NCBI GenBank assembly: GCA_963699755.1
Contig: CAVOVB010000001.1
Location: 320,001 to 384,000, forward strand
Length of the DNA stretch: 64,000 bases
DNA from: an uncultured delta proteobacterium
GTDB taxonomy: Bacteria; Myxococcota_A; Polyangia; Polyangiales; Houyiibacteriaceae
Reading direction: 5' to 3'
Positions 6,432 to 22,580 of this stretch are shown piece after piece. A program made the translations under genes and the position numbers. The stretch's first letter is position 1; each line of letters starts with the position of its first letter. The notes under the pieces are model-generated. The model saw nothing but the letters and a program-made list of their open reading frames with translations. It did not search any database and was not told the origin of the DNA.

Positions 6432-8957
6432 CTAAAACTTCACGGTGGCCAAGACCTGGAAGTAGATCGGCCAGCCCGGAGTGAAATGGAGGTCCTCGCA
6501 ACCAGCAAAGGTGCCGTCCGGCTCGATGACGGCGCGGGTTCCAGTCGGGCAATCTGCGGGAATGTCTTCGCCCAGAAGACGTCCCGTGGTCGCAAACTGC
6601 GCTTGGCGCCACTTGGTGTTCAGAAGATTGAGCAGCTGCGCCTGCACGCCGAAGCGCCGGTTCTCCCAGCCAAAGGAGGCGTCGACCCGCAGAAACCCTT
6701 CGGCAGTCAGAAAGCGGTCTTCGGTGGCAGGCCGGTCGGCGATGTAAAAGAAGCCAAGGCGTCCCGAAAGCCCCGTGCGCGGATCGCGAGCCGTCAAGCC
6801 CCCGCTGAGCAGGACCTCTGGGGCGAGTGCAATGGCATTGGCGTTGCCTGGATTGTTTACGAACTCCGCCCGGACCCAGGTCGCATCGAGGTCCGCGAGC
6901 AACCAAGGCACGATCTCGAGACGGAACTGGGCTTCGAGCCCGAGTCGACGAGTTTGCCCGCTTGCTTCGGTGGTGCCCTCGTCGCCCACCCAGACTACCT
7001 CGCTGTCGAGGTCCAGCCAGAAGAAGGCCGTCGAAAGCTGCAGCCGATTCCATGCGATCACCCGTGCACCCAGCTCCCAACCGAGCGCTGCGGCGACTGG
7101 GGTCGCCGGATCGGCGCCCAGAACGACCCCGCGCGCATCGTTCGAGTGAAACCCGCGCCCGAAGTTGACGAAGAGCTCTAGCGGTTCGACTGGCTGCACG
7201 ATCAGGCTGGCTTTGGGTAAAAGGATCGCTTGGACCCGTTCGCCGCTGCTTTTGGTGCCTAGCGTGCTCCGGTCCTCGAGTTGGTCCGTCACGTTGAAGA
7301 CGAAGTAGTCGAAACGAAGCCCACCGACGAGCCGCAGCCATCTCCAATCGAGCTCTTCCTCTCCGAAGACCCCTATGTTTCCCTCGCCGATGTTGGCGTC
7401 CACGCGTGTTGAAGCGATCTCGCGTGCAGGCGCATCCTGCAGTGTGTTGTCGATGGCATCGAAGCGAAAGTTGGCGCCCATCCGCGACTTCAGCGTCACC
7501 CTGTCGAATCGATGGGTGAATCCGTACTTGGCCCGTAGGCCCAGGGCAGTGCGCTTGTCGCCTTGGCGGATCATGTCGCCGCTGACCGGATCGTTCGCAA
7601 AGTAGGTGAAGTTGGAATACAGTGCGAAGCGCGAGTGGATGAGCCACCCCACGAGGCTCAGCCCTTCGCCTCCGGTCGAGCGCTGCCCATGTGTTCCCGG
7701 CTTCGCAGGTGAGTCGAGGTTGAGGTATAGGCTGTATCGCTGGCTCTGCCCGCCCTCGTTCGGGTCGATGCTGCCAAAGCGGTCGAGACTACCGGCGCGT
7801 ACTGCTCGCAGCGGAATCTGTCCCGATGCGTTCCAGTCGTTGAGGTAGGCGGTGCCGGTGAGCGCTAGCTTTGTCTTGCCACGAAGGTCGAAGGTGGTTC
7901 GGGCGAAGATATTCGTGCGCAGCAAGCCCTCGGGATTCTCGAACGGTCCATCGGTGCCGAATACCTCGATGGCAAGGAGGGGCTTCACCGCATCGAGCTT
8001 GGGACTGATGATTCCGACGCCTCGAAAGCTCCGATACATGCCACCCCCGACGCTGAGGGAGCTGGTGGGCTCTTGGTTCTCGAGGACGAGATTGATCGCG
8101 CCAGCCGTCGCGAAGTCGCCGTATTCGCCATAGTATGGGCCTTTACGGACCTCCATCCGTTGGATCAACTCGGGGATGACGAAATGAAGGTCGGTGTATC
8201 CCTGGCCGTGTCCGTGACTGACCCAGTTGATCGGAACGCCGTCGACGTAGAATGCGACGTCCGTGCCGTGATCGCCGTCGAAGCCGCGAAGGAAGTACTG
8301 GTTGGCTTTGCCACCTCCGGCGTGCTGAATGGAGAAGAAGCCGGGGGCCGCGTTGAGAAGATCACCGCTCGAAATATATGGGCGGAGACGCAACTCCTGC
8401 CCCGTGAGATCGATCGAGGACGCGGAAATGTCGGACGGAGCCACGACTGCAGTCGCGCTGAAGCCCGTCTCGGGAGCGACATCTCCGGTGGCGGTCGTCT
8501 CGGGCTCCTCCTCGCTCTGGGTTGGCGCTGCATGAGGCTCTGCGGGCTCCCCCTCACCTAGTTGGTGTGGAGGATCGAACAAGACCTCGAACCGAACGAT
8601 GGCGGGTACGGGGATCCCATCACGTTTCGCTGGCTCGAAAGCCAAGTCGAGCACATACCGTTGTGCCAACTCGGAGAACTGCGCGGCTTGCTCCCCTTCT
8701 CGATCGACCGAAAGCACGTGCACCTCTTCGACCCGCCCCTCCGGGTCGATGCTGATCTGCAACAGCACATGGGCCGGCTTGCCGTCAGCGTCGGGCGGGT
8801 AGGACGGATGCAGCTGTGCGTCCGAACGGAGCGAGGGCGCTTCGAGCAGGGGTGAATCGGAGGGTGCCTGCGCGGCTTCTTCTTCCTGGGCGAATGCTGA
8901 ACCATGCACTGCCAGGCAAGCCGCAAGGGCGACCATGAGCTTTGAGAGTTCACGCAT
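6432..8957 (-). CDS. TonB-dependent receptor with an N-terminal TonB-C-like domain; probable metal uptake
   Basis: Signal peptide; YPP...VLLQISIDPEGRV...FEPAKRDG.PV TonB-C segment; plug with QHAGGGKANQYFLRGF..DHGTD and SHGHGQGY; C-terminal Phe (ATVKF). Confidence 0.9.
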   Translation of the reverse strand: MRELSKLMVALAACLAVHGSAFAQEEEAAQAPSDSPLLEAPSLRSDAQLHPSYPPDADGKPAHVLLQISIDPEGRVEEVHVLSVDREGEQAAQFSELAQRYVLDLAFEPAKRDGIPVPAIVRFEVLFDPPHQLGEGEPAEPHAAPTQSEEEPETTATGDVAPETGFSATAVVAPSDISASSIDLTGQELRLRPYISSGDLLNAAPGFFSIQHAGGGKANQYFLRGFDGDHGTDVAFYVDGVPINWVSHGHGQGYTDLHFVIPELIQRMEVRKGPYYGEYGDFATAGAINLVLENQEPTSSLSVGGGMYRSFRGVGIISPKLDAVKPLLAIEVFGTDGPFENPEGLLRTNIFARTTFDLRGKTKLALTGTAYLNDWNASGQIPLRAVRAGSLDRFGSIDPNEGGQSQRYSLYLNLDSPAKPGTHGQRSTGGEGLSLVGWLIHSRFALYSNFTYFANDPVSGDMIRQGDKRTALGLRAKYGFTHRFDRVTLKSRMGANFRFDAIDNTLQDAPAREIASTRVDANIGEGNIGVFGEEELDWRWLRLVGGLRFDYFVFNVTDQLEDRSTLGTKSSGERVQAILLPKASLIVQPVEPLELFVNFGRGFHSNDARGVVLGADPATPVAAALGWELGARVIAWNRLQLSTAFFWLDLDSEVVWVGDEGTTEASGQTRRLGLEAQFRLEIVPWLLADLDATWVRAEFVNNPGNANAIALAPEVLLSGGLTARDPRTGLSGRLGFFYIADRPATEDRFLTAEGFLRVDASFGWENRRFGVQAQLLNLLNTKWRQAQFATTGRLLGEDIPADCPTGTRAVIEPDGTFAGCEDLHFTPGWPIYFQVLATVKF

Positions 8958-9031
8958 GACGAATCGCCGAATCCACGGGACCCCAGAGGCCCCGCGACCC
9001 AAGTGAAAGGTTCGACTTCGAGGAGAACCCT

Positions 9032-9451
9032 TTAGGTGGGCGGTGCGCGCGCTCGCGTGTTCTCGGGTTGACAGTCGGCGGGCTGCTCGTCGTGTGTCAG
9101 AGGCGGCGGATCGGTCCAGCTTAGAAGCGCCTCTTGTACATCCGGAAGAGACGGAACCGGAACGTTCGCAGCAAGCTGCCCGTGCGCGATGCTCCCTTTG
9201 CCGTGATCGGACGGCGACTCGTGCTCGTCCTCGTCACCTTCGTGATGGTGAGCGTCCGCTCGCTCGTGGTCGTGGTCCCGAGGATGCTCGTGAGCGCTAC
9301 GATTTTCGTGTGCCCCATGATGGTGCGCACCGAACGCGCCATGAAATGCGACGTGTACCGTCGGCAGCAGCACGAAGCCAGCCAGCCACAGAAGGGACGC
9401 GAGCGCGGCGCCAAAGCTCTGATGACGGTTTCCGGAATGCCGAAAGGTCAC
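9032..9451 (-). CDS. His-rich exported leader protein ending in a RAPP motif (DUF2946/CruR/CutF-like uORF)
   Basis: N-terminal hydrophobic segment, about 16 His in about 60 aa, Pro-rich linker, C-terminus RARAPPT*; 74 nt upstream of the TBDR start. Confidence 0.75.
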   Translation of the reverse strand: MTFRHSGNRHQSFGAALASLLWLAGFVLLPTVHVAFHGAFGAHHHGAHENRSAHEHPRDHDHERADAHHHEGDEDEHESPSDHGKGSIAHGQLAANVPVPSLPDVQEALLSWTDPPPLTHDEQPADCQPENTRARAPPT

Positions 9452-10431: not shown

Positions 10432-10706
10432 CAGCGTCCCCTTCGGAGCGCAAAAAGATGCGCGCGGTTCTCTTCCTCATCGCATCTTGGTCGGCTCATA
10501 GGCAGCCAAATACGCCAAACACAACAAAGATCCAAGGGTAGGCCGCGAACGAGGCATCGAAGCATTCGAAGCGACGAATCCTGCCATCGACGAGGCCCGT
10601 TCGGTTTTCTTGTGCCTCGGAACCATGGGAACGACGGTCGGCTCTTCTCGTGGAACGCTGCCCGCGTTGACGGACCTAGCGAAAGGCGCAATCACTACGA
10701 TCTATC

Positions 10707-13700
10707 ATGAAGGCCGCGGGTGCGATGCCGGTGTCTCGGGTCGAGCCGCTGCATGCGGTTGTTTCGGGCCGTCTGCGCGTTCGCGTTCGCGGACTCTATC
10801 GCTCCAGGCATCTCGCGTCCCGGATCGAGCAATCGTTGCGTTCGCACCCATCGATTCGGCGCGTGCGAGCGAGCGCACGCACCGGCAACGTTCTGGTGCT
10901 CTTCGACGATAGTCTGAGCTCCATCGACGTTCATCGGATGCTCGACTCCGCGCTCGACACAGCGGCGACCGAGGTGGTCTCACTGCGCAGGCGGCCTAGC
11001 CGTCTAGCCTCCGATTCCGGTTTCGCCCTCCTGTTCGCCGAGGCATGGCGGCGAGCCAGAGGTTTCCGGGACCGCGCAAACAACGACGACAACCGAGTGA
11101 TTCATGTCGCGTTCCCCCAAAACGATCTCCGTTGGTACTTGCGCACGGTCGATGAAGTCATCGAGTCATTCGAGAGCTCGAGCACGAACGGGCTTGCGGC
11201 AGAGAAATTGCCTGAGTTGCTCTCCCGCTACGGTCCCAATGCGTTGCCTCGGGCCGAGCCGCGAAGCGCGCTTTCGCTCATCGGTGCTCAGCTCAAGAGC
11301 CTCCCGGTCGCGCTGCTCGGAGTGTCCGCGGTCGTCTCGGTCCTCACGGGGGGCGTGCTCGAGGCAGGGGTCATTGGTGCCGTGGTCGTGACCAACGCCC
11401 TCATCGGATTCGCGACCGAATCTCAGATCGAGAGAAGCATTCGATCGCTATCGACGGTCACGGCGACGAAGGCTCGCGTGATTCGGGATGGGCAGGCGCT
11501 CGAAGTTGCCGCTGAAGAGATCGTTCCCGGCGACATGCTCGTGCTCGGCCGAGGTACTCGGATCGTGGCGGATGCTCGAATCGTGGAGACCTCGAGACTG
11601 GACGTGGACGAATCTGCGTTGACGGGAGAGAGCATCCCCGTGACGAAACAGTCGGCACCGCTGGAAAAAGAAACGGTGCCACTCGCCGACAGAACGAACA
11701 TCGTCTACAGAGGAACCTCAGTCACGGGCGGCAGCGGTCTCGCGGTCGTCGTTGCAACTGGTTCCGGTACGGAGCTCGGCCGCATTCAAGAGTTGGTCAG
11801 CCACGCAGGGCCACCGGAAACTCCGTCGCAACGCGAGCTCAGAGTGCTCGGCAATCAACTCGTTTGGGCGGGCGCCTCGGTCTGCGGCGCGATGTTCGGA
11901 ATCGGCATGCTTCGCGGCTACGGGTGGATGCAAATGGCACGCTCGTCGATCTCTTTGGCGGTCGCGGCTCTGCCCGAAGGTCTTCCAACGGTGGCGATGA
12001 CGGTTCTGTCTCTCGGAGTGCGCGATCTCCGCAAGCGCGACGCTCTGGTCCGTCATCTAGACGCCGTCGAGACGCTAGGGGCGCCCCAGATCATCTGCTT
12101 GGACAAGACCGGAACGATTACGCAGAACCGGATGTCCGTCGTATCGGCGCTCGCCGATGGCTGCCGGCAAGACTTCAGTGCCGATGACCTCGGCCGCGCC
12201 GAGGCTGCGCCGGCGTCGCTCGACAGCCCCGCTTTTCGCCGCATGCTCGAAGTCGCCGCGCTTTGCAACGAGGTCGCGCTCGAGAAGTCGGACAGAGGCT
12301 GGCGCCTCCATGGCTCGCCGACCGAGCGCGCGCTTATGGAGCTGACGCTCGCTCACGGCATCGACGTCGAGGTGCTGCGGGCGACGTATCCGATGGTGGA
12401 TCTGCAACTGCGTGCGGACGACCGAAACTACATGGTCTCGACCCACTCGCTCGGCGAAGGCAAGTCATTCTTCGCTGTGAAGGGCAGCCCGGATCAGGTC
12501 CTGTCACTCTGCGACCGGATCTATGATCAGGCTGTGGTGCGACCCCTCGACGAATCGGATCATGCCAAGGTCGAAGCCGAGAACGGCCAGATGGCGGGGC
12601 GGGCCTTGCGCGTTCTAGGGGTAGCGTACGGGGAGCACCCTGATTCCCTCGGAAACCCAGATCGCTACGTCTGGCTCGGCCTCCTAGGCATGACCGATCC
12701 GCCGCGCATAGGGGTGAAAGCGCTCATCGAAGAGTTTCACCACGCAGGGATCGACACTGTCATGATCACTGGAGATCAGAGCGCCACCGCCTATGCGATC
12801 GCAAAGGAGCTCAATCTCGGTCGCGACGGATTGCTCGAGATCCTCGACTCCACCCACATGGAGGAGGTCCCCCCAGAGGTGCTCAGCTCCTTGGCTCAAC
12901 GCGTCCAGGTGTTCTCGCGGGTGAGCCCAGCACACAAGTTGGAGATCGTCCAAGCGCTTCAACGGGCGGGGAAAGTCGTCGCAATGACTGGGGACGGCAT
13001 CAACGACGGCCCGGCGCTGCGAGCGGCGGATGTAGGCATTGCAATGGGCGCCACCGGGTCGGAAGTTGCGCGTGAGGTTGCCGACGTCGTGCTCGAGAGG
13101 GACGACCTAGAATCCCTGATCGAGGCGATCAGGCAGGGTCGAACGATCCACGACAACATCCGCAAGTCTGTGCACTTCTTGCTCTCGAGCAACACGAGCG
13201 AAATCCTCACGATGATGGGCTCGATCAGCGCCGGCCTTGGCGAGCCACTGACGCCGATCCAACTCCTCTGGCTCAACCTGATCACCGACATCTTCCCCGG
13301 CCTTGGGCTCGCCGTCGAACCGTCCGAACCCGATGTCATGGAGCGCCCTCCCCGGGGCTCTGACGACCCGCTCTTGCGTAGTGCCGACTTCGTCCGCATC
13401 CTCACCGAGGGCGCGCTGCTCGCGGGCGGCACTCTCGGCGGCTACGCTTGGGCGCTTCGCCGGTACGGCGCCGGACCGAAGCCAGCTTCCATCGCCTTCA
13501 TGACCCTCACGATCGCCCAGCTCCTACACGCCCTATCGTGTCGGTCCGAACACCGAAGCATTTTCGACCGGGAGCTGGGCCCGATGAACCTTCCACTCAA
13601 ATTGGGGGTCGGTGGCTCGCTCGCGCTCCAGCTGCTCGCTGGGGCGGTCCCCGGCTTGGGCCCGATCCTCGGACTCGGTCGCCTGCGCGCCCCTGACTGG

Positions 13701-13841
13701 CTGGCAATCGCCCTCGGAGCGGGCTTACCTCTGCTGACCAATGAGGCGCTCAAGAAGGGCGGATTGTGGAAACGCGAGTTTCACCCGGCATCGTTCGGAA
13801 CCGGAACCGTTGGCTCATCGCAGAGGAGCGTGCATCCATGA
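10707..13841 (+). CDS. P-type ATPase, Ca2+-transporting (P2A-like), with an N-terminal HMA2-like domain
   Basis: LTGES, VAALPEGLP, DKTGT, TGDGINDGPAL; M5 SSNTSE and M6 NLITD match Ca-ATPase ligands; N-terminal HAVVSGRLRVRV...TGNVLVLFD. Confidence 0.93.
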   Translation: MKAAGAMPVSRVEPLHAVVSGRLRVRVRGLYRSRHLASRIEQSLRSHPSIRRVRASARTGNVLVLFDDSLSSIDVHRMLDSALDTAATEVVSLRRRPSRLASDSGFALLFAEAWRRARGFRDRANNDDNRVIHVAFPQNDLRWYLRTVDEVIESFESSSTNGLAAEKLPELLSRYGPNALPRAEPRSALSLIGAQLKSLPVALLGVSAVVSVLTGGVLEAGVIGAVVVTNALIGFATESQIERSIRSLSTVTATKARVIRDGQALEVAAEEIVPGDMLVLGRGTRIVADARIVETSRLDVDESALTGESIPVTKQSAPLEKETVPLADRTNIVYRGTSVTGGSGLAVVVATGSGTELGRIQELVSHAGPPETPSQRELRVLGNQLVWAGASVCGAMFGIGMLRGYGWMQMARSSISLAVAALPEGLPTVAMTVLSLGVRDLRKRDALVRHLDAVETLGAPQIICLDKTGTITQNRMSVVSALADGCRQDFSADDLGRAEAAPASLDSPAFRRMLEVAALCNEVALEKSDRGWRLHGSPTERALMELTLAHGIDVEVLRATYPMVDLQLRADDRNYMVSTHSLGEGKSFFAVKGSPDQVLSLCDRIYDQAVVRPLDESDHAKVEAENGQMAGRALRVLGVAYGEHPDSLGNPDRYVWLGLLGMTDPPRIGVKALIEEFHHAGIDTVMITGDQSATAYAIAKELNLGRDGLLEILDSTHMEEVPPEVLSSLAQRVQVFSRVSPAHKLEIVQALQRAGKVVAMTGDGINDGPALRAADVGIAMGATGSEVAREVADVVLERDDLESLIEAIRQGRTIHDNIRKSVHFLLSSNTSEILTMMGSISAGLGEPLTPIQLLWLNLITDIFPGLGLAVEPSEPDVMERPPRGSDDPLLRSADFVRILTEGALLAGGTLGGYAWALRRYGAGPKPASIAFMTLTIAQLLHALSCRSEHRSIFDRELGPMNLPLKLGVGGSLALQLLAGAVPGLGPILGLGRLRAPDWLAIALGAGLPLLTNEALKKGGLWKREFHPASFGTGTVGSSQRSVHP

Positions 13842-15022
13842 CTCGAGACTTCCTGTTTACTTCCGAATCAGTGACCGAAGGTCACCCCGACAAGCTCTGT
13901 GATCAGATCAGCGATGCGATCGTGGACCGCTACCTTCAGCAAGATCCCTTCTCCACTCTGGTCGCCGAAACCGCGCTATCGAAAGGGATCGTGTTCATCG
14001 CATCGCACTTCTGCTCGAAAGGCACGGTCGACATCCCGGGGCTGGCGCGCGAGGTGATTCGGGACATCGGCTACGACGACGAAAGCTTCAACGCACGAAG
14101 CTGTAGCGTCATGACCAGCCTCAACGAGATGCCATCGCGCGCGGAGCCAACACCAGATGAGCGTGAGCTCGACGACGAAGCCATCGAGCGCATTGCCGTG
14201 ACCGAGCACGCAACGGTATTCGGATTCGCGTGCAAGCAGACCCCGGAGCTCATGCCGCTGCCGATCGTGGTCGCGCACGACTTGGCGAAGCGGCTTGCCG
14301 AAGCGAGACGCAAGGGTTCGACTTCGTACCTCAACCCGGATGGAAAGACCCAGGTCGGAATCGAGTACCTCGACAACCGACCACATCGAATTCACTCGAT
14401 CACGCTGGTGGCGAGTCAGAAGAAGGATGCCCCGAGCCTTTCCCGGTTGCGTGACGACCTGATGGAGCAAGTGATTAGGCCCGCATTCACGGGAAAAGAG
14501 CTTCGTCCGGATGCGGATACCACCATTTCCATCAACCCAGAGGGCGCGGTCATCTTGGGCGGTCCGACGCTTCACTCGGGCTCGACTGGTAGAAAAGTGG
14601 GGGTCGACACCTGGGGCGAGTATGCACGAAATAGCGGCTCGGCGATGTCTGGCAAAGATCCAACTCGAATCGACCGCATTGGAGTGTATGCGGCGCGACA
14701 CGCTGCGAAGAATGTCGTCGCGGCCGGTCTCGCAGATGAATGCGAGGTCCAGCTGAGCTACTCCATCGGATTGTCGCGCCCGGTCACTGTCCGGGCACGA
14801 ACGTTTGGCACTGGACGGATTTCGAATGCCGAGATCAGCAAGCGGATCGATGCCAATTTCGATCTTCGCCCAGGAGGGATTATTCGTGATTTCGAGCTGC
14901 GCTGGCTTCCGATTCAGCGCAAGCAGGACTTCTATCGGCGCTTGGCTAGTTACGGACAGGTGGGACGGCCGGAGCTCGACCTGCCCTGGGAGCGGACCAA
15001 CGCGGTGGCGCGGCTTTCCTAG
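13838..15022 (+). CDS. metK: Methionine adenosyltransferase-like protein (divergent MetK paralogue)
   Basis: FTSESVTEGHPDKLCDQISD, PDGKTQV, SGKDP.RIDR, CEVQLSY.IG; ATGA overlap with the ATPase stop; GAGDQG signature absent. Confidence 0.85.
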   Translation: MTRDFLFTSESVTEGHPDKLCDQISDAIVDRYLQQDPFSTLVAETALSKGIVFIASHFCSKGTVDIPGLAREVIRDIGYDDESFNARSCSVMTSLNEMPSRAEPTPDERELDDEAIERIAVTEHATVFGFACKQTPELMPLPIVVAHDLAKRLAEARRKGSTSYLNPDGKTQVGIEYLDNRPHRIHSITLVASQKKDAPSLSRLRDDLMEQVIRPAFTGKELRPDADTTISINPEGAVILGGPTLHSGSTGRKVGVDTWGEYARNSGSAMSGKDPTRIDRIGVYAARHAAKNVVAAGLADECEVQLSYSIGLSRPVTVRARTFGTGRISNAEISKRIDANFDLRPGGIIRDFELRWLPIQRKQDFYRRLASYGQVGRPELDLPWERTNAVARLS

Positions 15023-15549
15023 GACTTGCCATCGCCGTCTTGTTCGTCGCCGTCTCGGTGCTGCCGGAGCAGACGCATCGCCTCTCCGAGCAAGGTGGGC
15101 CCCGACGGAAGGATCGAGCCTCGAAGGGCCTGGAGGACCGCCAACATGAACAAACCGGTGGCGGCCCGCTGAGGATTCTGGTCCATCCGGGCCCAGAGAA
15201 CTTCGGCGTCGAATCTGTCTAGCCGGTCGAGCCAATGGACGATGGTCTGCCTGGTGTCTTTCGGGGTTTCGCATCGAAACAGGCCAGCGGCTTCGGCGTG
15301 CTTCAAGAGCTCGGAGCAATCGCCGCGATGGAGGACCAGGATGCTGCCGGTGTTCGGATTCGTGGCAACCTCGAGCACCGAAACATGCTGCTCCAAAACC
15401 TGCTTCACCCCTTCGAAATAGGCCTCATCGCCGCGGCGCTCAGAACAGCGGACCCGAAAGCGACCAGTGCTTTGATGGCACAGGGCGGCCGTCGCCCTTG
15501 GTGGCGCCTCAGCTCGCTTGGCTTCGGTCTCTGGCGTCTTGCGTGGCAT
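15019..15549 (-). CDS. HMA2-domain membrane protein (FezC-like)
   Basis: HQSTGRFRVR...VLEVATNPNTGSILVLH followed by a hydrophobic C-terminal segment GLFMLAVLQALRGSILPSGPTLL. Confidence 0.7.
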   Translation of the reverse strand: MPRKTPETEAKRAEAPPRATAALCHQSTGRFRVRCSERRGDEAYFEGVKQVLEQHVSVLEVATNPNTGSILVLHRGDCSELLKHAEAAGLFRCETPKDTRQTIVHWLDRLDRFDAEVLWARMDQNPQRAATGLFMLAVLQALRGSILPSGPTLLGEAMRLLRQHRDGDEQDGDGKS

Positions 15550-15796
15550 CGCTCATCCCGGCTTCTTCAGCCATCTCGGCACTCACTTCCGCCATCAAGT
15601 CCTCCATGTCCTCGCGGAGCTCGGCGAGCTTTTCGACGCCGCCTTCGACGGCCCGCATCGTTCGCTTCAGGCTGGCTTTGACGAGGTCTCGCCGACGGCT
15701 GTCCGTCTGAGGGAGGAACATGGGAAGCAGTGAAGCCGCGGCAGCGCCAAGTGCAAATCCGATCGCCACGTCCCGAATCGAGATTGATTTTGCCAT
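15509..15796 (-). CDS. Small GxxxG membrane protein with an acidic helical tail (DUF5132/FezA-like)
   Basis: IGFALGAAAASLLP; LVKASLK; AELREDMEDLMAEVSAE; AGGAGG SD upstream. Confidence 0.7.
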   Translation of the reverse strand: MAKSISIRDVAIGFALGAAAASLLPMFLPQTDSRRRDLVKASLKRTMRAVEGGVEKLAELREDMEDLMAEVSAEMAEEAGMSDATQDARDRSQAS

Positions 15797-15985
15797 CGAT
15801 TCCTCCTTGTAGCGGACAGTTTCAGCATGCGCCGAACTGCCTCTGTTGTCGACGCGAAATTCACTTTCCGTATCTGCAATACCGGCGGTCGGGATCGCTC
15901 GATGCGCGAAGCGCTCGAGCTCTGCCCGGAGGCGTTCCTGCGTGGTGGGCGGGTAACCAACGGGCCTTGCGGCGAAACGAACGAT

Positions 15986-18900
15986 TCAGTCCGAGCGGTC
16001 CAAGCTCGCTTCGCTTGCTGTCTGGTACCCAGGATCTCCTGGACTCTGGCGGGAAACGGCAGAGCGGGGATTTGCGGCACGATGTAGCAGGTACGGTGTG
16101 ATGGCCGCCGCCAGGAGAGACGCACCGGAAGGCGCGAGGACCTCATGGTGGCGCCCGGCAAGCCACTCGATACGGACCCCGTCTCGAACCAAGCGACCCC
16201 AGCCCAAGTCGGGTTCGTGTGGGCCTTCAAACGGATCGAGCTCCGTCCGGAAAAGCACGAGCTTCGCGGGGATCGTCTTCGGGCGATACTGCATGATCAA
16301 ATCGAGCTGGGCCTGCATGGAACTGAGATCGTCTTTCGAAAAATCCACCTGGGCGTGTCGAAAAAGCCCGCCGATGTCGTGGCGGTAGTGTCGTCCGAAC
16401 CAGCGAGCCGGAGCGCGGAGCGCGGCCTCGAGAACGCGCCCGGCCGACGCTTCGATCGAGCCTCTGTTTTCGCCAATCTCCCTCAGTCGCGCGGCCGTCG
16501 TCCGAGCCAAACGCCAAAGCCGCTTCGGACTCGTAAAGGGCGATGGAACGGGAATCGATGCAGGGGGCGTACCGTCCAATACCGCGAAGAAATCAACTTC
16601 GTGGCCGATCTCGAGGAGCTGCTCGGCGATGGCGAGAGCAACGATACCACCGGTCGAATACCCGGCAAGAGCATGAGGGCCTTCGGGCTGCGCCTTGAGA
16701 ATCAACTTGGCGTAGGTTTGCGCCATCGTATTAAGGCTGTCGCCCGCAACTTCGACATCGGTCAGACCCGGGGTCCGAAACCCATAGACTGGAATCATCG
16801 AGTCGAGGGCTTCGGCGAGATGGACGTAGTCCAGCGCAAGGCCGGTCACTCCAGGGGCGAGGAAAAGCGGCCGGACTGCTGGGTCTCCGGGCGCGAGCTG
16901 GACGATCGGCTCCTGACGCTCGACTTCGATGCCTTGACGGACCAACCGCGCAAGACCTTCCAAGGTGGGGTCGCGGAAGAACGCCTGCGCGTCGCATGAA
17001 CGGTTCAAGCGGCTCTCCACTTCGTTGAACAGCTGGACCACCAGTAGCGAATGTCCCCCAGCCTGGAAAAAGTTGATCGATGCGTCTGAGATCGGCTTCC
17101 CTAGCAGTCCAGTCCAGATCTCGGCGAGCTCCGTTTGGATCGGCTCATTCGGTGGGGCTGAGAGCTGGTCACCGAGCTGCGCGTCCTCGCTGAGGCGCGC
17201 GGCGGATAGGGCTTCGCGGTCAATCTTGCCAGCAGGAGTCTGCGGCAGCTCGTCAAGCGTCAGGATCCTCTTGGGGACCATGTGGCTTGGCAGCGCCCTC
17301 GAAAGACATTCGCGAATTCGGGGCAGGTCGACGAGATTGCGATCGCCGACGACGAAGCCGATGAGTGCTGCGTCTCCACCTCGATCTCTTCGTACCACGA
17401 CTGCGGCTTCGCTTACACCCGGGCATGACAACAGGTGTGCTTCCACTTCGCCGAGCTCTATACGAAAACCTCGCACCTTGACCTGCTGATCGACACGATC
17501 GACGTAAACATAGTTCCCGGCACTGGTCTGTCTCACGAGATCTCCGGTCGCGTACAAACGAGCGCCCTCGCGCCATGGGTGAGGGACGAAACGCTCGGCG
17601 GTCTTCTCCTTCTGCCCGAGATAACCGAGCGCGAGGGTGCAGCCCCCGATGTAGAGTTGTCCCACGACCCCTTGCGGAACCGGACGCATGTGATGGTCCA
17701 AGACGAAGTGGGAGACACCGCGGTGTGGACGTCCGATCGGCATCGCTGGATCCGGATCGCTTTGTCGATCATCATAGAAGGTGGACGTGATGGTGGTCTC
17801 AGTTGGACCATACGCGTTGATCCAGCGAATCCAATCGGTCCGAGCTTCACGAAAACGTTCATGGGCCTCGACAGAGGCCTGCTCTCCACCGACCACCAGC
17901 AAGCGAACGCACCGCGGCCAAGTCGCCTGCGCGCGGCTGTCCGTCAGCTTGTGCCAAAACGCGGTGGGCAGATTCAGGACCGTGAGCCGGTGTTGCTCCG
18001 CCGCGGCGAAGAAGCTCCGGCTCGTCTGCGCAAGCTCCCGATTTCGTAATACCAGCGTTGCGCCAGCGCAAAGCGTCGGAAAGATCTCTTCCAAGGAGAC
18101 ATCGAAGCTCAGCGCAGCAAACTGCAGAACGCGGTCCTTCGGAGTGAGTCGAAACACATCGACCGTCGTCATCGCATGATGGCTCAGAGCGCCATGGGTC
18201 AAACAGACCCCTTTTGGTATTCCCGTCGAACCTGATGTGTAGACGACGTAGGCGAGCGAGTCCGGGGCAACGGCCGGCGGGGCCGAGCTCGGGGGAGGCA
18301 CCTCCGGACTGAGCTGCTCGAGATCGACCACCGTCGCGCTGGTCCTCGGCATGCTCGAGCTCGCTCCGTTGACGAGAATGAACCTCGCTTTCGAATCATC
18401 GAGCATGAATGCGATCCGCTCGGGCGGATAGTCAGGATCGGCCAGCATGAAGGCCGCGTGCAGGTAGTGAGCTGCCAGCATGGCGACGACGGCCTCGATC
18501 GAGCGCGGGAGCAGCAAGGCCAGAAGGTCACCCTCCCTCACACCGCGCGCCTGGAGCGCGTGGGCCGTCGAGCGTATTCGCGATGCGAGCTCCGCATACG
18601 TCATCGAGCGACCATCCATCGCTTCGATCGCCGTGTGCGCTCCTCGAGCGTGCGCCTGATCGAGAATCCGCTGAAGCGCACTGATCTCCGGTGGTTCTTG
18701 CTCACGCTCGGCTTCTGCGGCGGTCAGTCTTTCATAGACCCCGCGGTCCAGCACTCGGAGGTCATGAAGCTGTGCGTCGGGATTGCATGCTACTTCAGAC
18801 AGCAAGCTCACGTAGTGCCGCAGGATTTGCTCGGCCTCGGCGGCAGAATACAGACCTGAATCGCGCTCGAGTTGCACGATGAGTGCCCCGGCCTCCATGA

Positions 18901-20074
18901 ACGTATAGAGGCAGAGCGGGTAGTTGGTGTGCGACCGTGACCAAACCTTGCGCGTCTTCCAGCGCTCGCTCAAGTCGCTGAGCCTGCCAGACAGACGCCC
19001 CGGTTCGAAGACGGTAAGGGTGCGGAACAATTCCTTCTTGCTGGATGCGCCAGTGGCAGCCTTGATCTGGTGAAGCGGGGTTTGCTGAAACGGGCGTCCC
19101 TCCAGGTGCTGTTGCCGGAGCGATCTCAGGGCTTCTTTGATCGATGGATCCCCGCTGAGATCCAATCGGATGGGAACGGTCGCGATGAAGAGTCCGACGG
19201 TTTGCTTCGCGCCTTCGATCGTCCCCGTTCGTCCCGACCAGGTGGTACCAAAGACGACGTCGTCTCGGCCCGCGTAGCGGGAAAGCAAGACGCCCCAAAC
19301 GAGCTGAGTCACCGTATTCAGACTGGCGCCGCATTCGTCTGCAAGTTTTTTCAAGCCCCGGCTCGTGGGGACATCGAGGCGTCGACGGTGTTCGACAACG
19401 TGCGAATCTCGAGATGCAATACGACTGTCGTTGCGAAGAGGGAGCTCGGTCGGCTCGGAGAATCCCTCCAAAAGGCGACGGAAGTGCTCCACGCCGGCCT
19501 GGGTATCCCGTTCGGCCGCCCATCGGATGAAATCAAAGTACGACGGCGCCGGACCGACAGGCTGAAGGTCGCCCTGATACGTCGAAAGCACGTACTCTAG
19601 CACCGAGGCGTAGGATCCACCGTCGATGAGGCAGTGGCGGACGGTCCATACGAAGCACCAGCGCGTATCGGACAACCTGAACACCGAAACTCGCATCAGC
19701 GGAGCGCGAAATAGATCGATACCTTCGCTCCGATCGCGATCAAAGAAGCTCGCAAGCATTTCGCGCTGCTCGGCTTCGGAGTGCTTTGTCCAGTCTTCGA
19801 GTCTGAATGGCAGGTCGACGCGCGGGCAAACCCTAACCAGCGGCTCATCGGGCTTGGGCCACTCGAACTCCAGGCGCAGCGCATCGAAGCGGTCGAGGGC
19901 GCTCTGCCATGCCGCTCGAAATCGCTCCGGATCGAGAGGATCCTCCAACTCGCAGACGACCTGCTCGATGTTGACCATACGCCCGCGAGCCAGGAGGCTT
20001 TCCGCCAGCATCCCCCTCTGCATCGGGGTGACCCTCAGGGCGACGGGCCGGTCGTGCTTCAATGCTCGCCCCAT
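15986..20074 (-). CDS. Single-module non-ribosomal peptide synthetase (C-A-PCP-TE)
   Basis: C: TPMQRGML, RHCLIDG; A: YTSGSTGIPKG, NAYGPTE, LYATGD, QVKVRGFRIELGEVE, AGKIDR; PCP: FFQAGGHSL; TE: GYSTGG and GRHH. Confidence 0.95.
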   Translation of the reverse strand: MGRALKHDRPVALRVTPMQRGMLAESLLARGRMVNIEQVVCELEDPLDPERFRAAWQSALDRFDALRLEFEWPKPDEPLVRVCPRVDLPFRLEDWTKHSEAEQREMLASFFDRDRSEGIDLFRAPLMRVSVFRLSDTRWCFVWTVRHCLIDGGSYASVLEYVLSTYQGDLQPVGPAPSYFDFIRWAAERDTQAGVEHFRRLLEGFSEPTELPLRNDSRIASRDSHVVEHRRRLDVPTSRGLKKLADECGASLNTVTQLVWGVLLSRYAGRDDVVFGTTWSGRTGTIEGAKQTVGLFIATVPIRLDLSGDPSIKEALRSLRQQHLEGRPFQQTPLHQIKAATGASSKKELFRTLTVFEPGRLSGRLSDLSERWKTRKVWSRSHTNYPLCLYTFMEAGALIVQLERDSGLYSAAEAEQILRHYVSLLSEVACNPDAQLHDLRVLDRGVYERLTAAEAEREQEPPEISALQRILDQAHARGAHTAIEAMDGRSMTYAELASRIRSTAHALQARGVREGDLLALLLPRSIEAVVAMLAAHYLHAAFMLADPDYPPERIAFMLDDSKARFILVNGASSSMPRTSATVVDLEQLSPEVPPPSSAPPAVAPDSLAYVVYTSGSTGIPKGVCLTHGALSHHAMTTVDVFRLTPKDRVLQFAALSFDVSLEEIFPTLCAGATLVLRNRELAQTSRSFFAAAEQHRLTVLNLPTAFWHKLTDSRAQATWPRCVRLLVVGGEQASVEAHERFREARTDWIRWINAYGPTETTITSTFYDDRQSDPDPAMPIGRPHRGVSHFVLDHHMRPVPQGVVGQLYIGGCTLALGYLGQKEKTAERFVPHPWREGARLYATGDLVRQTSAGNYVYVDRVDQQVKVRGFRIELGEVEAHLLSCPGVSEAAVVVRRDRGGDAALIGFVVGDRNLVDLPRIRECLSRALPSHMVPKRILTLDELPQTPAGKIDREALSAARLSEDAQLGDQLSAPPNEPIQTELAEIWTGLLGKPISDASINFFQAGGHSLLVVQLFNEVESRLNRSCDAQAFFRDPTLEGLARLVRQGIEVERQEPIVQLAPGDPAVRPLFLAPGVTGLALDYVHLAEALDSMIPVYGFRTPGLTDVEVAGDSLNTMAQTYAKLILKAQPEGPHALAGYSTGGIVALAIAEQLLEIGHEVDFFAVLDGTPPASIPVPSPFTSPKRLWRLARTTAARLREIGENRGSIEASAGRVLEAALRAPARWFGRHYRHDIGGLFRHAQVDFSKDDLSSMQAQLDLIMQYRPKTIPAKLVLFRTELDPFEGPHEPDLGWGRLVRDGVRIEWLAGRHHEVLAPSGASLLAAAITPYLLHRAANPRSAVSRQSPGDPGYQTASEASLDRSD

Positions 20075-20235
20075 CGCGGTCGAGTGTAGCCTCCAACGCT
20101 CAAAGGACCAGCTGAAACGGCGCCCACCGCCCTTAGTGTCATCGGGGCAAGATTGCCCGGGCACGCTCAGACGCAGGGCTAGTGTCCCTACAGTCGACGC
20201 GGGCACGGCATCTCAGATGGGTCGGGTTGTTGTGC

Positions 20236-22290
20236 TCAGATGCCATTGCCCGCGATCCCATCGCTCGCTTTGTAGTTCGTGACGGCCGCGTGCCGGAAGA
20301 AGTACTGGGTGGGAGATGGCGACCAGTTTGAGCTCCCAACCATGCCGAGGTGCGCATTGAATCTCGGAAACCCGTCGCGCCAGGTTTCAATGCCGGTTTG
20401 TTCCAGTGCCAGCACGCCATTGATGTAAACCCTCGAGAGGCCATCGGTTGCGCCTTGGCCCGATGACCGAACGTACTCGAGCTCCACTTCGACCCATTCA
20501 CCAAGAGGAACGGCGACAGTGCTGAGAACGCTGTCAGGCGTGGTGGAACCGAGCAACCGAAGCGCGGACCAATCTAAAAAGAGCTTCATCGTGCCCGCGC
20601 GATCGACCTCGAGGCTTGGCCAAAAATCCGCGAAGAGCGGGGCGCCCTCGTCCGTGGAAGGGGAAACGTCTAGGATCGACAGCCATGCCGAGCCGTCCCC
20701 GGTGAGCCTGTCCTCGAACAGGAACTCGGCGAACATGAAGATCGAGCCCTGATCCTCGAATTGCTTCTGTAGGTACGCATTGCGGTCGCGCCCGCCTCGA
20801 ATCAGTCGTCGCATGTCCGCGCTAGGTGCAACCGTTGCCTTCGAGTACCAGACCGGCTCTGTTCCCAACGGGTCGATTACCCTGTCGGTGGCCGGACCGG
20901 TCCAAATGTTGCAAGGGACGGGGGTTCCGATCGGCTGTTGGCAATAAGGGGATCCAGGGTACTGAGGCCGGCCCGACGGGGAGAAGTTGAAGCTTGGCGC
21001 GAAGAAGGCCCCGCTCTCGCTGCTCGCCCAAAAAACGAAGTCAGGCGGCGCTGCTCCAACGCCGGGGGCTAGGTCTTCCTCGTTCGCAGCGGTCCATCTC
21101 GTGTTGTCCCGAATCCAGTCTTCGAACGCCTCAACGCGCACCCAGGTTCCTTCAACACCCGGCGCACATTCACCGGAGCCCCGAGACGCAACGCCCGCAA
21201 TCCGGGGTTTGCCGTCAACGAACGCATAGAGCGGCCCGCCGGAGTCACCGCAACAAATGGATCCGCCTTCGATGAGGAAGCCACGAAATATTCTGTCTCC
21301 GAGCAGTGAGACGTATTGATTGCCTTCATACAACTCTTTGATCGGGCCAGCCCCGGCATTGTCGCCGTAACCGTGCGCGAGAAGCTCCGTGCACATCGGC
21401 GCCATCGAATCCGTATGCGGATAGGCGGCATAGGGCTCCGGCAGATCTACGCTCGTGTAAATCAGCATCAGGTCTGCGCCCGACTCTGATGTGCTTGCGG
21501 TTGGCGGATCGGCGGGTACCGGCCCCACGTCCGGGTGCAACCTGAAGCGATCGGACACGGCGATCACGGGCGCCGTGTCAAGTGGTTCCGTGTGGACATC
21601 GTGCCAATCGCTAGCCGGGTTCAGACAGTGCGCAGCGGTCAAGAGCGTGCGCGGGCTGATGATCGTTGCCGTGCACGAGCCGGAGGCGAGATTCATCCAC
21701 TCAACGCGGGCAGAGCTGATTCTATCCGATGCGATGGTGCATCCGCACATCCTGGGAACTGGACCACCTGCGGCGGGGTCCATCGCCCCCGCGCAGAAGA
21801 GGCCGGTGCCGGTCTGACCGCCGTCGCCTCCGATGCCACCTTCTCCGCCCTGGCCGCCTGTGCCGATCTGACCGCCGATTCCTCCAGTGCCACCTTCTCC
21901 GCCGTAGCCACCGGTGCCGGTCTGACCGCCGTCGCCTCCGATGCCACCTTCTCCGCCCTGGCCGCCTGTGCCGATCTGACCGCCGATTCCTCCAATGCCA
22001 CCTTCGCCGCCGTAGCCGCCGGTGCCGGTCTGACCGCCGTCGCCTCCAGTGCCACCTTCTCCGCCGTAGCCACCGGTGCCGGTCTGACCGCCGTCGCCTC
22101 CAGTGCCACCTTCTCCGCCCTGGCCGCTTATGCCACCCTCACCTCCGATGCCACCTCCGCCGCCGGTGCCGCCCTGACCGGCGATACCTCCGCTGCCGGC
22201 CGTTCCCCCGCTTCCACCGCTACCAGTGGTATCACCACACGCGACCAGGCCTAGCGCCAGCACGCACATCAATCCGCGCAAGTAACCCAT
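20236..22290 (-). CDS. Lipoprotein: Gly-rich repeat linker, trypsin-like (S1) serine protease, C-terminal beta-sandwich (lectin/lyase-like) domain
   Basis: Lipobox LVAC; LLTAAHC, ADLML, GDSGGPL triad motifs; VPLGEWVEVELEY...DG..RVYING. Confidence 0.85.
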   Translation of the reverse strand: MGYLRGLMCVLALGLVACGDTTGSGGSGGTAGSGGIAGQGGTGGGGGIGGEGGISGQGGEGGTGGDGGQTGTGGYGGEGGTGGDGGQTGTGGYGGEGGIGGIGGQIGTGGQGGEGGIGGDGGQTGTGGYGGEGGTGGIGGQIGTGGQGGEGGIGGDGGQTGTGLFCAGAMDPAAGGPVPRMCGCTIASDRISSARVEWMNLASGSCTATIISPRTLLTAAHCLNPASDWHDVHTEPLDTAPVIAVSDRFRLHPDVGPVPADPPTASTSESGADLMLIYTSVDLPEPYAAYPHTDSMAPMCTELLAHGYGDNAGAGPIKELYEGNQYVSLLGDRIFRGFLIEGGSICCGDSGGPLYAFVDGKPRIAGVASRGSGECAPGVEGTWVRVEAFEDWIRDNTRWTAANEEDLAPGVGAAPPDFVFWASSESGAFFAPSFNFSPSGRPQYPGSPYCQQPIGTPVPCNIWTGPATDRVIDPLGTEPVWYSKATVAPSADMRRLIRGGRDRNAYLQKQFEDQGSIFMFAEFLFEDRLTGDGSAWLSILDVSPSTDEGAPLFADFWPSLEVDRAGTMKLFLDWSALRLLGSTTPDSVLSTVAVPLGEWVEVELEYVRSSGQGATDGLSRVYINGVLALEQTGIETWRDGFPRFNAHLGMVGSSNWSPSPTQYFFRHAAVTNYKASDGIAGNGI
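21803..22126. repeat. Coding tandem repeat, 6 x 54 nt (18-aa GGEGG[T/I]GG[D/I]GGQ[T/I]GTGG[Y/Q]), with a nested 108-nt duplication
   Basis: 21803-21910 and 21911-22018 are near-identical. Confidence 0.9.
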
Positions 22291-22580
22291 GAAGACCTTC
22301 CCGGGCGAAATCGCTCGCTCCAACCCTCGTCACATCAGTCAATTGGGGGTGCCAACGAGCGTGGGCAATACGTAATTGTTAACCAATGACTCATACGAGC
22401 TCTTTGCACCACGTGACCGCTCGAGAAAAGATCGCGCCAATCCTGCCCGCACGCGGCAGACCGCCGCCTCGAGCGCGGCTGATTCTCTATCAAAGCGTCG
22501 AGGCGATCGGCCCGAGCTCGGCGGCTAGCTGATCGAGCGGGCAGTCGGCTTGGGTGCAGGCATTCAATTTCACGGCGAGC

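Follow-up and report, generated by a model that had tools for sequence, protein, structure and literature searches.

A stretch of 64,000 nucleotides from the genome of an uncultured delta proteobacterium of the Polyangiales (contig CAVOVB010000001.1, positions 320,001 to 384,000; the whole stretch is called the window below) carries a block of four genes in which a calcium-type P-type ATPase is followed by a protein with the fold of methionine adenosyltransferase (MAT, the product of metK) and faced by two small putative scaffold proteins. The original prediction for this DNA, made from the sequence alone, had likened the block to ferrosome accessory genes combined with a calcium-type pump and a pseudo-MetK. 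Our analysis supports the view that the MetK-fold protein is not an ordinary S-adenosylmethionine (SAM) synthetase, as it has lost SAM contacts, forms a separate clade and is always encoded behind the pump. We favour, with moderate confidence, a scaffolded Ca2+/Mn2+ efflux platform in which the MetK-fold partner would bind or split phosphate chains and so tie the pump to phosphate status.

Loss of SAM contacts in the MetK-fold protein

The MetK/MAT-fold paralogue of 394 amino acids (13838..15022, forward strand) was recognised from its family score, its residues, an AlphaFold2 model and a tree. The model (pLDDT 89) matched MAT structures at Z 48, with a root-mean-square deviation of 2.1 over 378 residues. 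The protein and its subfamily resemble MetK (EC 2.5.1.6; TIGR01034) in fold, in identity (39–45%) and in the triphosphate and metal residues, but the methionine contacts and most adenosine contacts are replaced, the gating loop has given way to a longer acidic segment and there is a C-terminal insert. In a quick, unrooted tree, from which two partial rows were left out, the subfamily formed a separate clade on a long branch from 22 canonical sequences (SH-aLRT 100).

Eight residues of MetK are described as SAM contacts: E55, Q98, I102, H14, D163, R229, F230 and D238 (PMC8727953). The window protein keeps two of the eight (H14 and D163) and subfamily members one to three, against seven or eight in canonical sequences. 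Relative to E. coli MetK, the window protein has His for E55, Met for Q98, Ala for I102, Ala for R229, Val for F230, His for D238 and Arg for K269, and most of its relatives have Arg at the E55 place. Retention in the subfamily was 0/61 for E55, 0/61 for D238, 0/60 for K269 and 2/61 for Q98, while on the adenine side I102 was kept in 1, R229 in 0 and F230 in 31 of about 61 copies. The clearest subfamily mark by residue counts is His at the D238 place (His246 in the window, codon 14573..14575, forward strand), found in 60/60 locus copies and 120/120 database proteins where 22/22 canonical sequences have Asp; Arg replaces K269 in 176 of 180 subfamily sequences.

A second group of residues has been maintained. 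E8, D16, E42, R244, K245, K265 and D271 were present in all subfamily copies that cover them and K165 in 48/61, and the window protein holds all eight, which we take to be triphosphate and metal ligands. Because the methionine contacts are replaced and the triphosphate and metal residues kept, the pocket, as far as its residues tell, is turned from a holder of the amino acid into a basic extension of the phosphate-chain site. MAT itself has a tripolyphosphatase step, and on that ground we infer that the MetK-like protein may bind or split triphosphate. A canonical metK is present in the window's own genome (contig C2), and of the 60 hosts, 50 were searched and 48 of these hold a true metK.

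Linkage of the MetK-like gene to the pump across phyla

Species genomes were scanned with the MetK-like protein and the best 80 of 598 loci were kept, which split into 60 loci at 49–62% identity and 20 at 39–45%. The MetK-like gene lay directly behind a pump homologue in 60/60 subfamily loci versus 0/20 canonical metK loci, counts that include kin, so that the entries are not independent. A DUF5132-type gene was found in 41 and a further gene for a CoBaHMA domain in 40 of the 60 loci, many of whose contigs end early. Hosts of the module belong to Cyanobacteriota, Nitrospirota, Thermodesulfobacteriota, Pseudomonadota, Myxococcota and others.

For the reverse test the pump was sought in three phyla (201, 201 and 301 genomes), just two or three candidates being scored per genome, so that pump counts are lower bounds. 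A MetK-like gene stood within 1.5 kb of 31 of the 34 pumps found, four of the 34 being already in the first set. In one phylum, DUF5132 occurred in 18 of 201 genomes, namely 17 with the pump and one (G076) whose pump was missed by the reverse search; the MetK-like gene was likewise found in 18 of those 201 genomes, 17 of them shared, and the three genes thus mark nearly the same 18 genomes. Among the cyanobacteria, DUF5132 was found in 29/201 genomes, including 14 of the 15 with a pump, and the pump genome without it (G389) also lacked the CoBaHMA cap and the MetK-like partner. None of 39 ordinary P2 pump loci, many of them short, held any of the three partners. The co-occurrence of the four genes, on which the original prediction had hung, was thus supported across phyla. 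Among the best 20 of 172 plasmid records there was no subfamily member (best identity 47%).

Two possible signs of contact between pump and partner were set aside. Their distances are correlated (rank correlation 0.80; same nearest neighbour in 18/52), and shared host ancestry explains this co-divergence. P0122, the sole fused protein among 120 listed of 233 long hits, joins pump residues 267–824 in frame to the MetK-like protein; since it lacks M1–M2 and M5–M10 and comes from one contig, it is probably a deletion or an assembly error.

The four genes form a real block

The pump gene (10707..13841, forward strand) and the MetK-fold gene share an ATGA overlap at 13838–13841, the second reading frame starting at its ATG, which agrees with the translational coupling proposed at the outset. 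From the opposite strand, the gene for a stand-alone CoBaHMA (HMA_2) protein of 176 aa (15019..15549, reverse strand) converges on them with a four-nucleotide CTAG overlap at 15019–15022, and the 95-aa DUF5132 reading frame (15509..15796, reverse strand) is preceded by a strong ribosome-binding site. The coordinates, overlaps and motifs of the original prediction were all found in the sequence.

Both junctions (ATGA and CTAG) recur in the relatives L094 and L097, and similarity to these two spans just window positions 10683–15822, with differing flanks. The ratio of non-synonymous to synonymous substitution (dN/dS) against them, read with dS near saturation, was 0.125–0.128 for the pump, 0.085–0.092 for the MetK-like gene, 0.21 for the HMA_2 gene and 0.15–0.19 for the DUF5132 gene, which makes the MetK-like gene the most constrained of the four. 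The G+C content of the block is the same as in the rest of the window, and among named proteins the nearest homologues of the MetK-like protein are from Polyangiales/Myxococcales assemblies. A copy was found in only 2/25 genomes of the window's genus. As similarity ends at the block edges, the junctions are kept, dN/dS is low and the genus is sparsely populated with copies, the four genes are a real block that is patchily spread. Purifying selection on all four genes ruled out chance overlap or shadow reading frames, and that on the MetK-like gene ruled out a decaying metK pseudogene; the term pseudo-MetK therefore holds in the sense of a re-purposed enzyme and fails in the sense of a decayed gene.

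The convergent layout of the window is a minority arrangement that recurs in L010, L020, L052, L060, L065 and L074, and about 26/60 loci carry the pump, the MetK-like gene, the HMA_2 gene and the small gene all on one strand. A promoter scan gave no sigma-70 site and one terminator-like site outside genes, which was not above chance.

A P2A-type pump with an altered adenine pocket

The pump of 1044 aa was assigned to the P2A type, with an N-terminal CoBaHMA (HMA_2) domain, from Pfam, NCBIfam, solved relatives and a residue table. It carries PEGL at 423, DKTGT at 466, SSNTSE at 827 and NLITD at 857, together with Cation_ATPase_N/C domains and a complete calcium-type ligand set (E424, N829, E832, N857, T860 and D861). 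The best NCBIfam models were IIA2/IIA1, both under cut-off, and the best solved relatives were SPCA1 and LMCA1 (E ~1e-133), with SERCA also matched. The motifs and the family and structure matches agree with the earlier reading of the pump as P2A-type rather than P1B. E424 was present in 81/82 pumps and N829, E832, N857 and D861 in 82/82.

The SERCA transport ligands E309, E771 and D800 (PMC7313052) are all matched by the pump. At the place of the SERCA site-I residue E908, as positioned by our own alignment, the window has Gln938, with Gln in 79/82 and Glu in 3/82 pumps. Several single-site calcium pumps also differ at this place, and the pump further matches SERCA N768, N796 and T799, which we presume to be transport ligands as well. 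Compared with the P2A Ca2+-ATPases SERCA, SPCA1 and Listeria LMCA1, the module pumps share domain order, catalytic motifs and M4–M6 ligands; they differ in the CoBaHMA cap, in Arg for Phe487, in Ser/Thr at the E439 place, in a Gln-x-x-His in M8 (82-pump table) and in invariant P-domain changes.

The cap (10749..10976, end approximate, forward strand) is an 'R-rich', cysteine-free HMA-like domain marked by H16, G21, R22 and R24. Under the definition in PMC8890360 it qualifies as CoBaHMA, with a His before strand 1, basic strands 1–2 and no CxxC, through H16 (in 52 of the 53 full-length linked pumps) and R22 and R24 (each in all 53). The HMA2-like N-terminus proposed earlier is thus upheld, by a weak Pfam HMA_2 match in the window (E 1e-3, below cut-off) and by an orthologue (L001) above cut-off.

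A further change of the pump lies in the N domain. Arg569 (codon 12411..12413, forward strand) occupies the place of the adenine-pocket Phe, which is F487 in SERCA and the F of IPFDSDRK in LMCA1, as placed by an ungapped LMCA1 alignment. Arg was found there in 82/82 pumps and in 148/150 best cluster representatives, never with an aromatic residue, the representatives having been found with the N domain and hence picked by likeness to this domain; 95/97 full-length representatives carry the CoBaHMA cap. In contrast, ordinary P2 pumps had F or Y in 29 of the 30 that cover the site, the thirtieth being a shifted alignment, and Arg in none, and the three other P2 pumps of the window's genome have Phe. 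Neither this change nor the phosphate-starvation context of the relatives, described below, was part of the original prediction.

The ATP cleft is lined by E442, F487, R489, K515, R560 and L562 (PMC7313052; see also PMC5259720). In the module pumps E442, K515, R560 and L562 were invariant (82/82), as was M494, and the R489 place was Glu or Asp in 78/82, where LMCA1 has Ser, so that the cleft is not complete. With those five residues invariant, binding of ATP in an altered mode appears likelier than no binding at all. Alternatively, inorganic triphosphate or polyphosphate could replace ATP as the phosphoryl donor of the pump, with the MetK-fold protein handing it over or trimming it. Nucleoside recognition looks relaxed in both proteins, with Arg for F487 and the acidic R489 place in the pump and a partner that keeps the phosphate-chain half only, but the invariant cleft residues and the Arg569 of three pumps that lack the partner speak against such a fuel. 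Arg can also stack on adenine, and we consider this alternative highly improbable. A comparison of the three partnerless pumps gave no clear signal of interface residues.

Several pumps depart from the common pattern. A related branch (L061:7034-10009, P0286, P0290, P0324, P0332, P0355, P0388 and others) has changed transport ligands, with PAGL/PSGL and no M5 Glu, and retains the CoBaHMA cap, DKTGT and mostly Arg569; 16/97 full-length representatives differ or misalign at the transport-ligand sites. The pump gene L045:1449-4579 is split by a frameshift and that of L141 has one internal TAG, through sequencing error or decay. Among other P-type ATPases, G000 holds two nearly identical copper-type P1B copies (C1:1862747-1864285 and C7:135370-136908), reflecting duplication or contamination (9% reported).

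Putative scaffold proteins and comparison with known systems

The 95-aa protein, assigned by Pfam and profile match, has one predicted membrane helix with GxxxG followed by an acidic helix, in the manner of a PacL/FezA-like scaffold. The GxxxG motif and acidic tail of the original prediction are both borne out, with GFALG at 13–17, a Kyte-Doolittle value of 2.05 for the hydrophobic 19-mer that contains it, and a segment beyond residue 55 with a net charge of -8. Pfam assigned it to DUF5132 (E 6e-4 in the window; above cut-off in 8/9 orthologues scanned) and not to DUF1490 or DUF6110, to both of which it has profile and feature similarity. The 176-aa protein, identified by Pfam and profile match, has a hydrophobic C-terminal segment and a FezC-like layout. 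Its identity as a stand-alone HMA_2 protein stood, with orthologues passing the HMA_2 cut-off and H25, R30 and R32 invariant in 22 proteins of the family, while its description as a membrane protein is only plausible (best hydrophobic 19-mer 1.54; 1.6 reached by 10/22 family members).

Ferrosome (fez) clusters contain the P1B-6 ATPase FezB, the GxxxG proteins FezA/E/G and the R-rich protein FezC (bioRxiv 10.1101/2020.01.10.902569). The module shares with them an R-rich/CoBaHMA pump cap, a stand-alone R-rich protein and a small GxxxG protein, and four FezB loci allowed a direct comparison. DUF6110 gave four hits in 201 genomes, which are true fez loci (L172–L175; FezB with DYSCA and HN[LV]TT), and a profile built from pump-linked DUF5132 proteins alone picked the gene beside FezB in 4/4 (E 6e-5 to 2e-3). 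In profile comparisons the 95-aa family matched, with probability 89 and E 2e-6, the DUF6110 proteins encoded next to FezB, and the HMA_2 protein matched FezC-like proteins over the CoBaHMA domain only (probability 83, E 1e-5). Because of these matches the proposed link of the small proteins to fez accessory families holds as distant homology. Against this likeness, FezB is a P1B-6 pump with D[YF]SCA and HNxxT and the window pump a P2A pump with PEGL/NxxE/NLxTD, the small protein is DUF6110 there and DUF5132 here, and the module has a MetK-fold partner and phosphate rather than iron genes nearby. In one sample of genomes the two small-protein families were never in the same genome. A true fez cluster was ruled out, as the pump is P2A-type and lacks the FezB motifs.

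Mycobacterial PacL/Ctp 'effluxosomes' are efflux patches in the plasma membrane (10.1101/2021.10.01.462712, PMC13043812, PMC13460109). PacL, too, is a small scaffold that crosses the membrane once, with a glycine groove and a helix rich in Glu and Ala, and its gene accompanies that of a P-type ATPase; by language-model features the 95-aa protein scored 0.90 against DUF1490 and DUF6110 clusters, which we take as a lead. The pumps there are P1B heavy-metal pumps, in contrast to the calcium-type P2A pump here, and the module lacks the C-terminal His metal motif and has an enzyme-fold partner. A third comparison is with ccyA (calcyanin), where DUF5132 and CoBaHMA proteins stand beside a calcium transporter (10.1101/2024.07.07.602159, PMC8890360); that transporter is a Ca/H exchanger, however, and calcyanin serves as the marker. 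The Microcystis ccyA preprint (10.1101/2024.07.07.602159) contains none of the terms metK, adenosyl and P-type. Long Gly zippers of the calcyanin (GlyZip)3 kind (PMC8890360) were absent from the four window proteins, which were inspected without a calcyanin profile search. The module therefore shares a scaffolding mode with fez and PacL clusters and is a member of neither. No description of the four-gene module was found in the literature searched, which covered few subscription papers; the CoBaHMA survey of Gaschignard et al. 2024, which possibly lists CoBaHMA-capped P2 pumps, lies outside that search.

These comparisons bear on whether the module builds an organelle. It could form a ferrosome-like, lipid-bounded compartment loaded by the pump with Ca2+/Mn2+, for which the MetK-fold enzyme would supply or process phosphate, giving a calcium-(poly)phosphate store. 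Both small proteins are homologous to accessory proteins of true fez loci, and 25/60 loci hold an extra Gly/Ala/Val-rich helical-repeat protein (~230 aa, no Pfam family), in most cases encoded immediately before the pump; its gene, however, is absent from the window and its three closest relatives. In Microcystis, DUF5132 and CoBaHMA genes flank ccyA and are co-expressed with it (10.1101/2024.07.07.602159), and Chlorogloeopsis fritschii PCC 6912, which carries the module (L022), is reported to have Ca- and P-rich inclusions and no carbonate (PMC8890360), although this link concerns one strain. Set against these points, the structures built by PacL proteins of the same type are patches in the plasma membrane, not organelles, and Pho-type control, in suggesting phosphate shortage, would make storage less expected. 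Calcium-bearing polyphosphate is, moreover, common in bacteria, and a compartment of this kind seems to us unlikely. Since the same kit serves mycobacterial patches, the ccyA/cax region and cyanobacterial P1B pumps, CoBaHMA and GxxxG proteins by themselves do not imply an organelle.

The helical-repeat protein (for example L048:4214-4927, and 24 other loci) is a candidate shell or membrane-shaping part. Cyanobacterial loci L176, L177, L182–L184, L186 and L188–L190 combine DUF5132 and CoBaHMA proteins with a CoBaHMA-capped ATPase of P1B size, and feoB adjoins at least three of these clusters (L176, L177 and L189), which are possibly unrecognised fez-like systems.

Phosphate context and gene neighbourhood

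Neighbouring genes were identified by Pfam scans of 252/276 representatives, followed by BLAST with references drawn from them. Phosphate-starvation-type genes (pst, phoH, phoX, phoA or phn) were found in 13/60 module loci (10 when self-only hits are excluded) and in 0/20 and 0/17 control loci, a comparison weakened by the smaller amount of DNA in the controls (416 kb vs 791 kb). Pho-box-like repeats, with at most one mismatch to the pattern, occurred in 9/97 upstream regions and represent 7 distinct sites from 5 genomes, whereas 12 crude shuffles averaged 1.8 and never exceeded 5. The divalent-cation genes corA, mgtE and cax lay near 7 loci.

Phosphatase genes in this context raise another possibility, that exported calcium-dependent phosphatases of the PhoX type receive their Ca2+ from the pump during phosphate starvation. 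A phoX gene lies beside L033 and L074, and alkaline phosphatase and phytase-like/GDPD genes beside L011, but PhoX was found in 5/201 genomes of one phylum, with one (weak) case among the 18 that hold the module, and was not found in the window's genome (completeness 100). Given this rarity, metallation of PhoX as a general role is unsupported and we give it hardly any credence.

Further genes were recorded near the module. A phosphatidylserine decarboxylase-like gene, possibly for lipid remodelling, lies near it in L044, L051 and L056 (also L046 and L050), and three such loci also hold a 787-aa unknown protein and an Lgt-like protein. In the window, positions 6432–9451 (reverse strand) encode a TonB-dependent receptor of 856 aa with a fused N-terminal TonB_C domain, preceded by a His-rich reading frame of 139 aa; the two look like a metal-uptake pair and are not beside the module in L094/L097. 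Positions 15986–20206 (reverse strand) hold a single-module gene like those for non-ribosomal peptide synthetases (condensation, adenylation, carrier and thioesterase domains), and the translation of positions 20236–22323 (reverse strand) has a signal-like start, long Gly-rich repeats and the trypsin-like motifs TAAHC and GDSGGP.

A putative efflux platform tied to phosphate status

The efflux platform that we favour can be set out in steps. To judge from its ligand set, the pump would export cytoplasmic Ca2+/Mn2+ in a cycle with an aspartyl-phosphate intermediate. If the DUF5132 protein behaves like PacL and the Fez proteins, its GxxxG helix may let it form membrane clusters, and it would join the stand-alone CoBaHMA protein in gathering and stabilising the pump via the CoBaHMA cap. 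The MetK-fold protein, given its active site, would no longer make SAM; because its intact triphosphate site opens into a pocket lined by Arg and His, it may bind and probably hydrolyse a phosphate-chain ligand, such as inorganic triphosphate, a polyphosphate end or a nucleoside triphosphate. It could thus act as a dedicated regulatory or enzymatic partner of a pump with an altered nucleotide cleft. The most likely purpose would be to remove or sort divalent cations that are freed or enter during phosphate mobilisation or scavenging.

Several observations, besides the smaller controls, weigh against this interpretation. On the phosphate side, 47/60 loci show no phosphate-starvation gene and 3 of the 13 that do count by their own reference only; in the window itself there was no phosphate gene among the neighbours scanned and no Pho-box-like repeat upstream of either gene pair (best 4 mismatches/10). 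The MetK-like gene is dispensable in some hosts, as 3/34 pumps occur in genomes without any copy. Within the MetK-like protein, K165 is changed in 13/61 copies and H14 is Asn in 4/61, which weakens a universal catalytic role. The protein also scores above the TIGR01034 metK cut-off (375 vs 309), and archaeal MATs synthesise SAM despite a His at the E55 place, with the Asp238 equivalent kept. The copies with Asn for the catalytic His14 belong to one clade (L014, L015, L017 and L049).

The metK family score and the archaeal MATs can also be interpreted as signs of retained nucleotidyl-group transfer by the MetK-fold protein, which would then be a second SAM synthetase or would place adenosine or another nucleoside onto an anionic acceptor to make a small-molecule regulator of the pump. 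The whole MAT fold, the largely kept H14 and D163, F230 in about half of the subfamily and the archaeal precedent for a rebuilt MAT pocket are in keeping with such activity. On the other hand, the four methionine-side residues are all replaced, with basic residues in place of the acidic ones, I102, R229 and F230 on the adenine side drift (Ala, Ala and Val in the window), and the hosts keep a true metK while the subfamily lacks the Asp238 that archaeal MATs retain. We regard a retained transferase as quite unlikely. Both it and the compartment can be combined with the efflux platform.

In its boldest form the module would represent a third kind of bacterial mineral compartment built on a P-type ATPase, after ferrosomes and carbonate inclusions. 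Such a compartment would store calcium-(poly)phosphate and rely on a re-purposed MAT fold that handles inorganic phosphate chains and regulates, or at the extreme fuels, a pump with a rebuilt adenine pocket, and we think it rather unlikely.

Irrespective of the compartment, the CoBaHMA and GxxxG-helix scaffold emerges as a general kit, used with P1B-6 pumps for iron, with P1B pumps for zinc and cadmium and here with P2A pumps of calcium type, which bears on how ferrosomes and calcium inclusions are built. Cultured hosts of the module exist in Chlorogloeopsis fritschii PCC 6912 and Nitrosospira sp. Nsp14. The pumps form a large P2 subfamily (at least 150 clusters at 50% identity) without the aromatic residue that is held central to ATP binding, and the wide, misannotated MAT-fold clade is a candidate for new chemistry in a highly conserved enzyme family. 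If the proposed partnership is true, a P-type pump would here have a dedicated enzyme partner, the MAT fold, for the first time.

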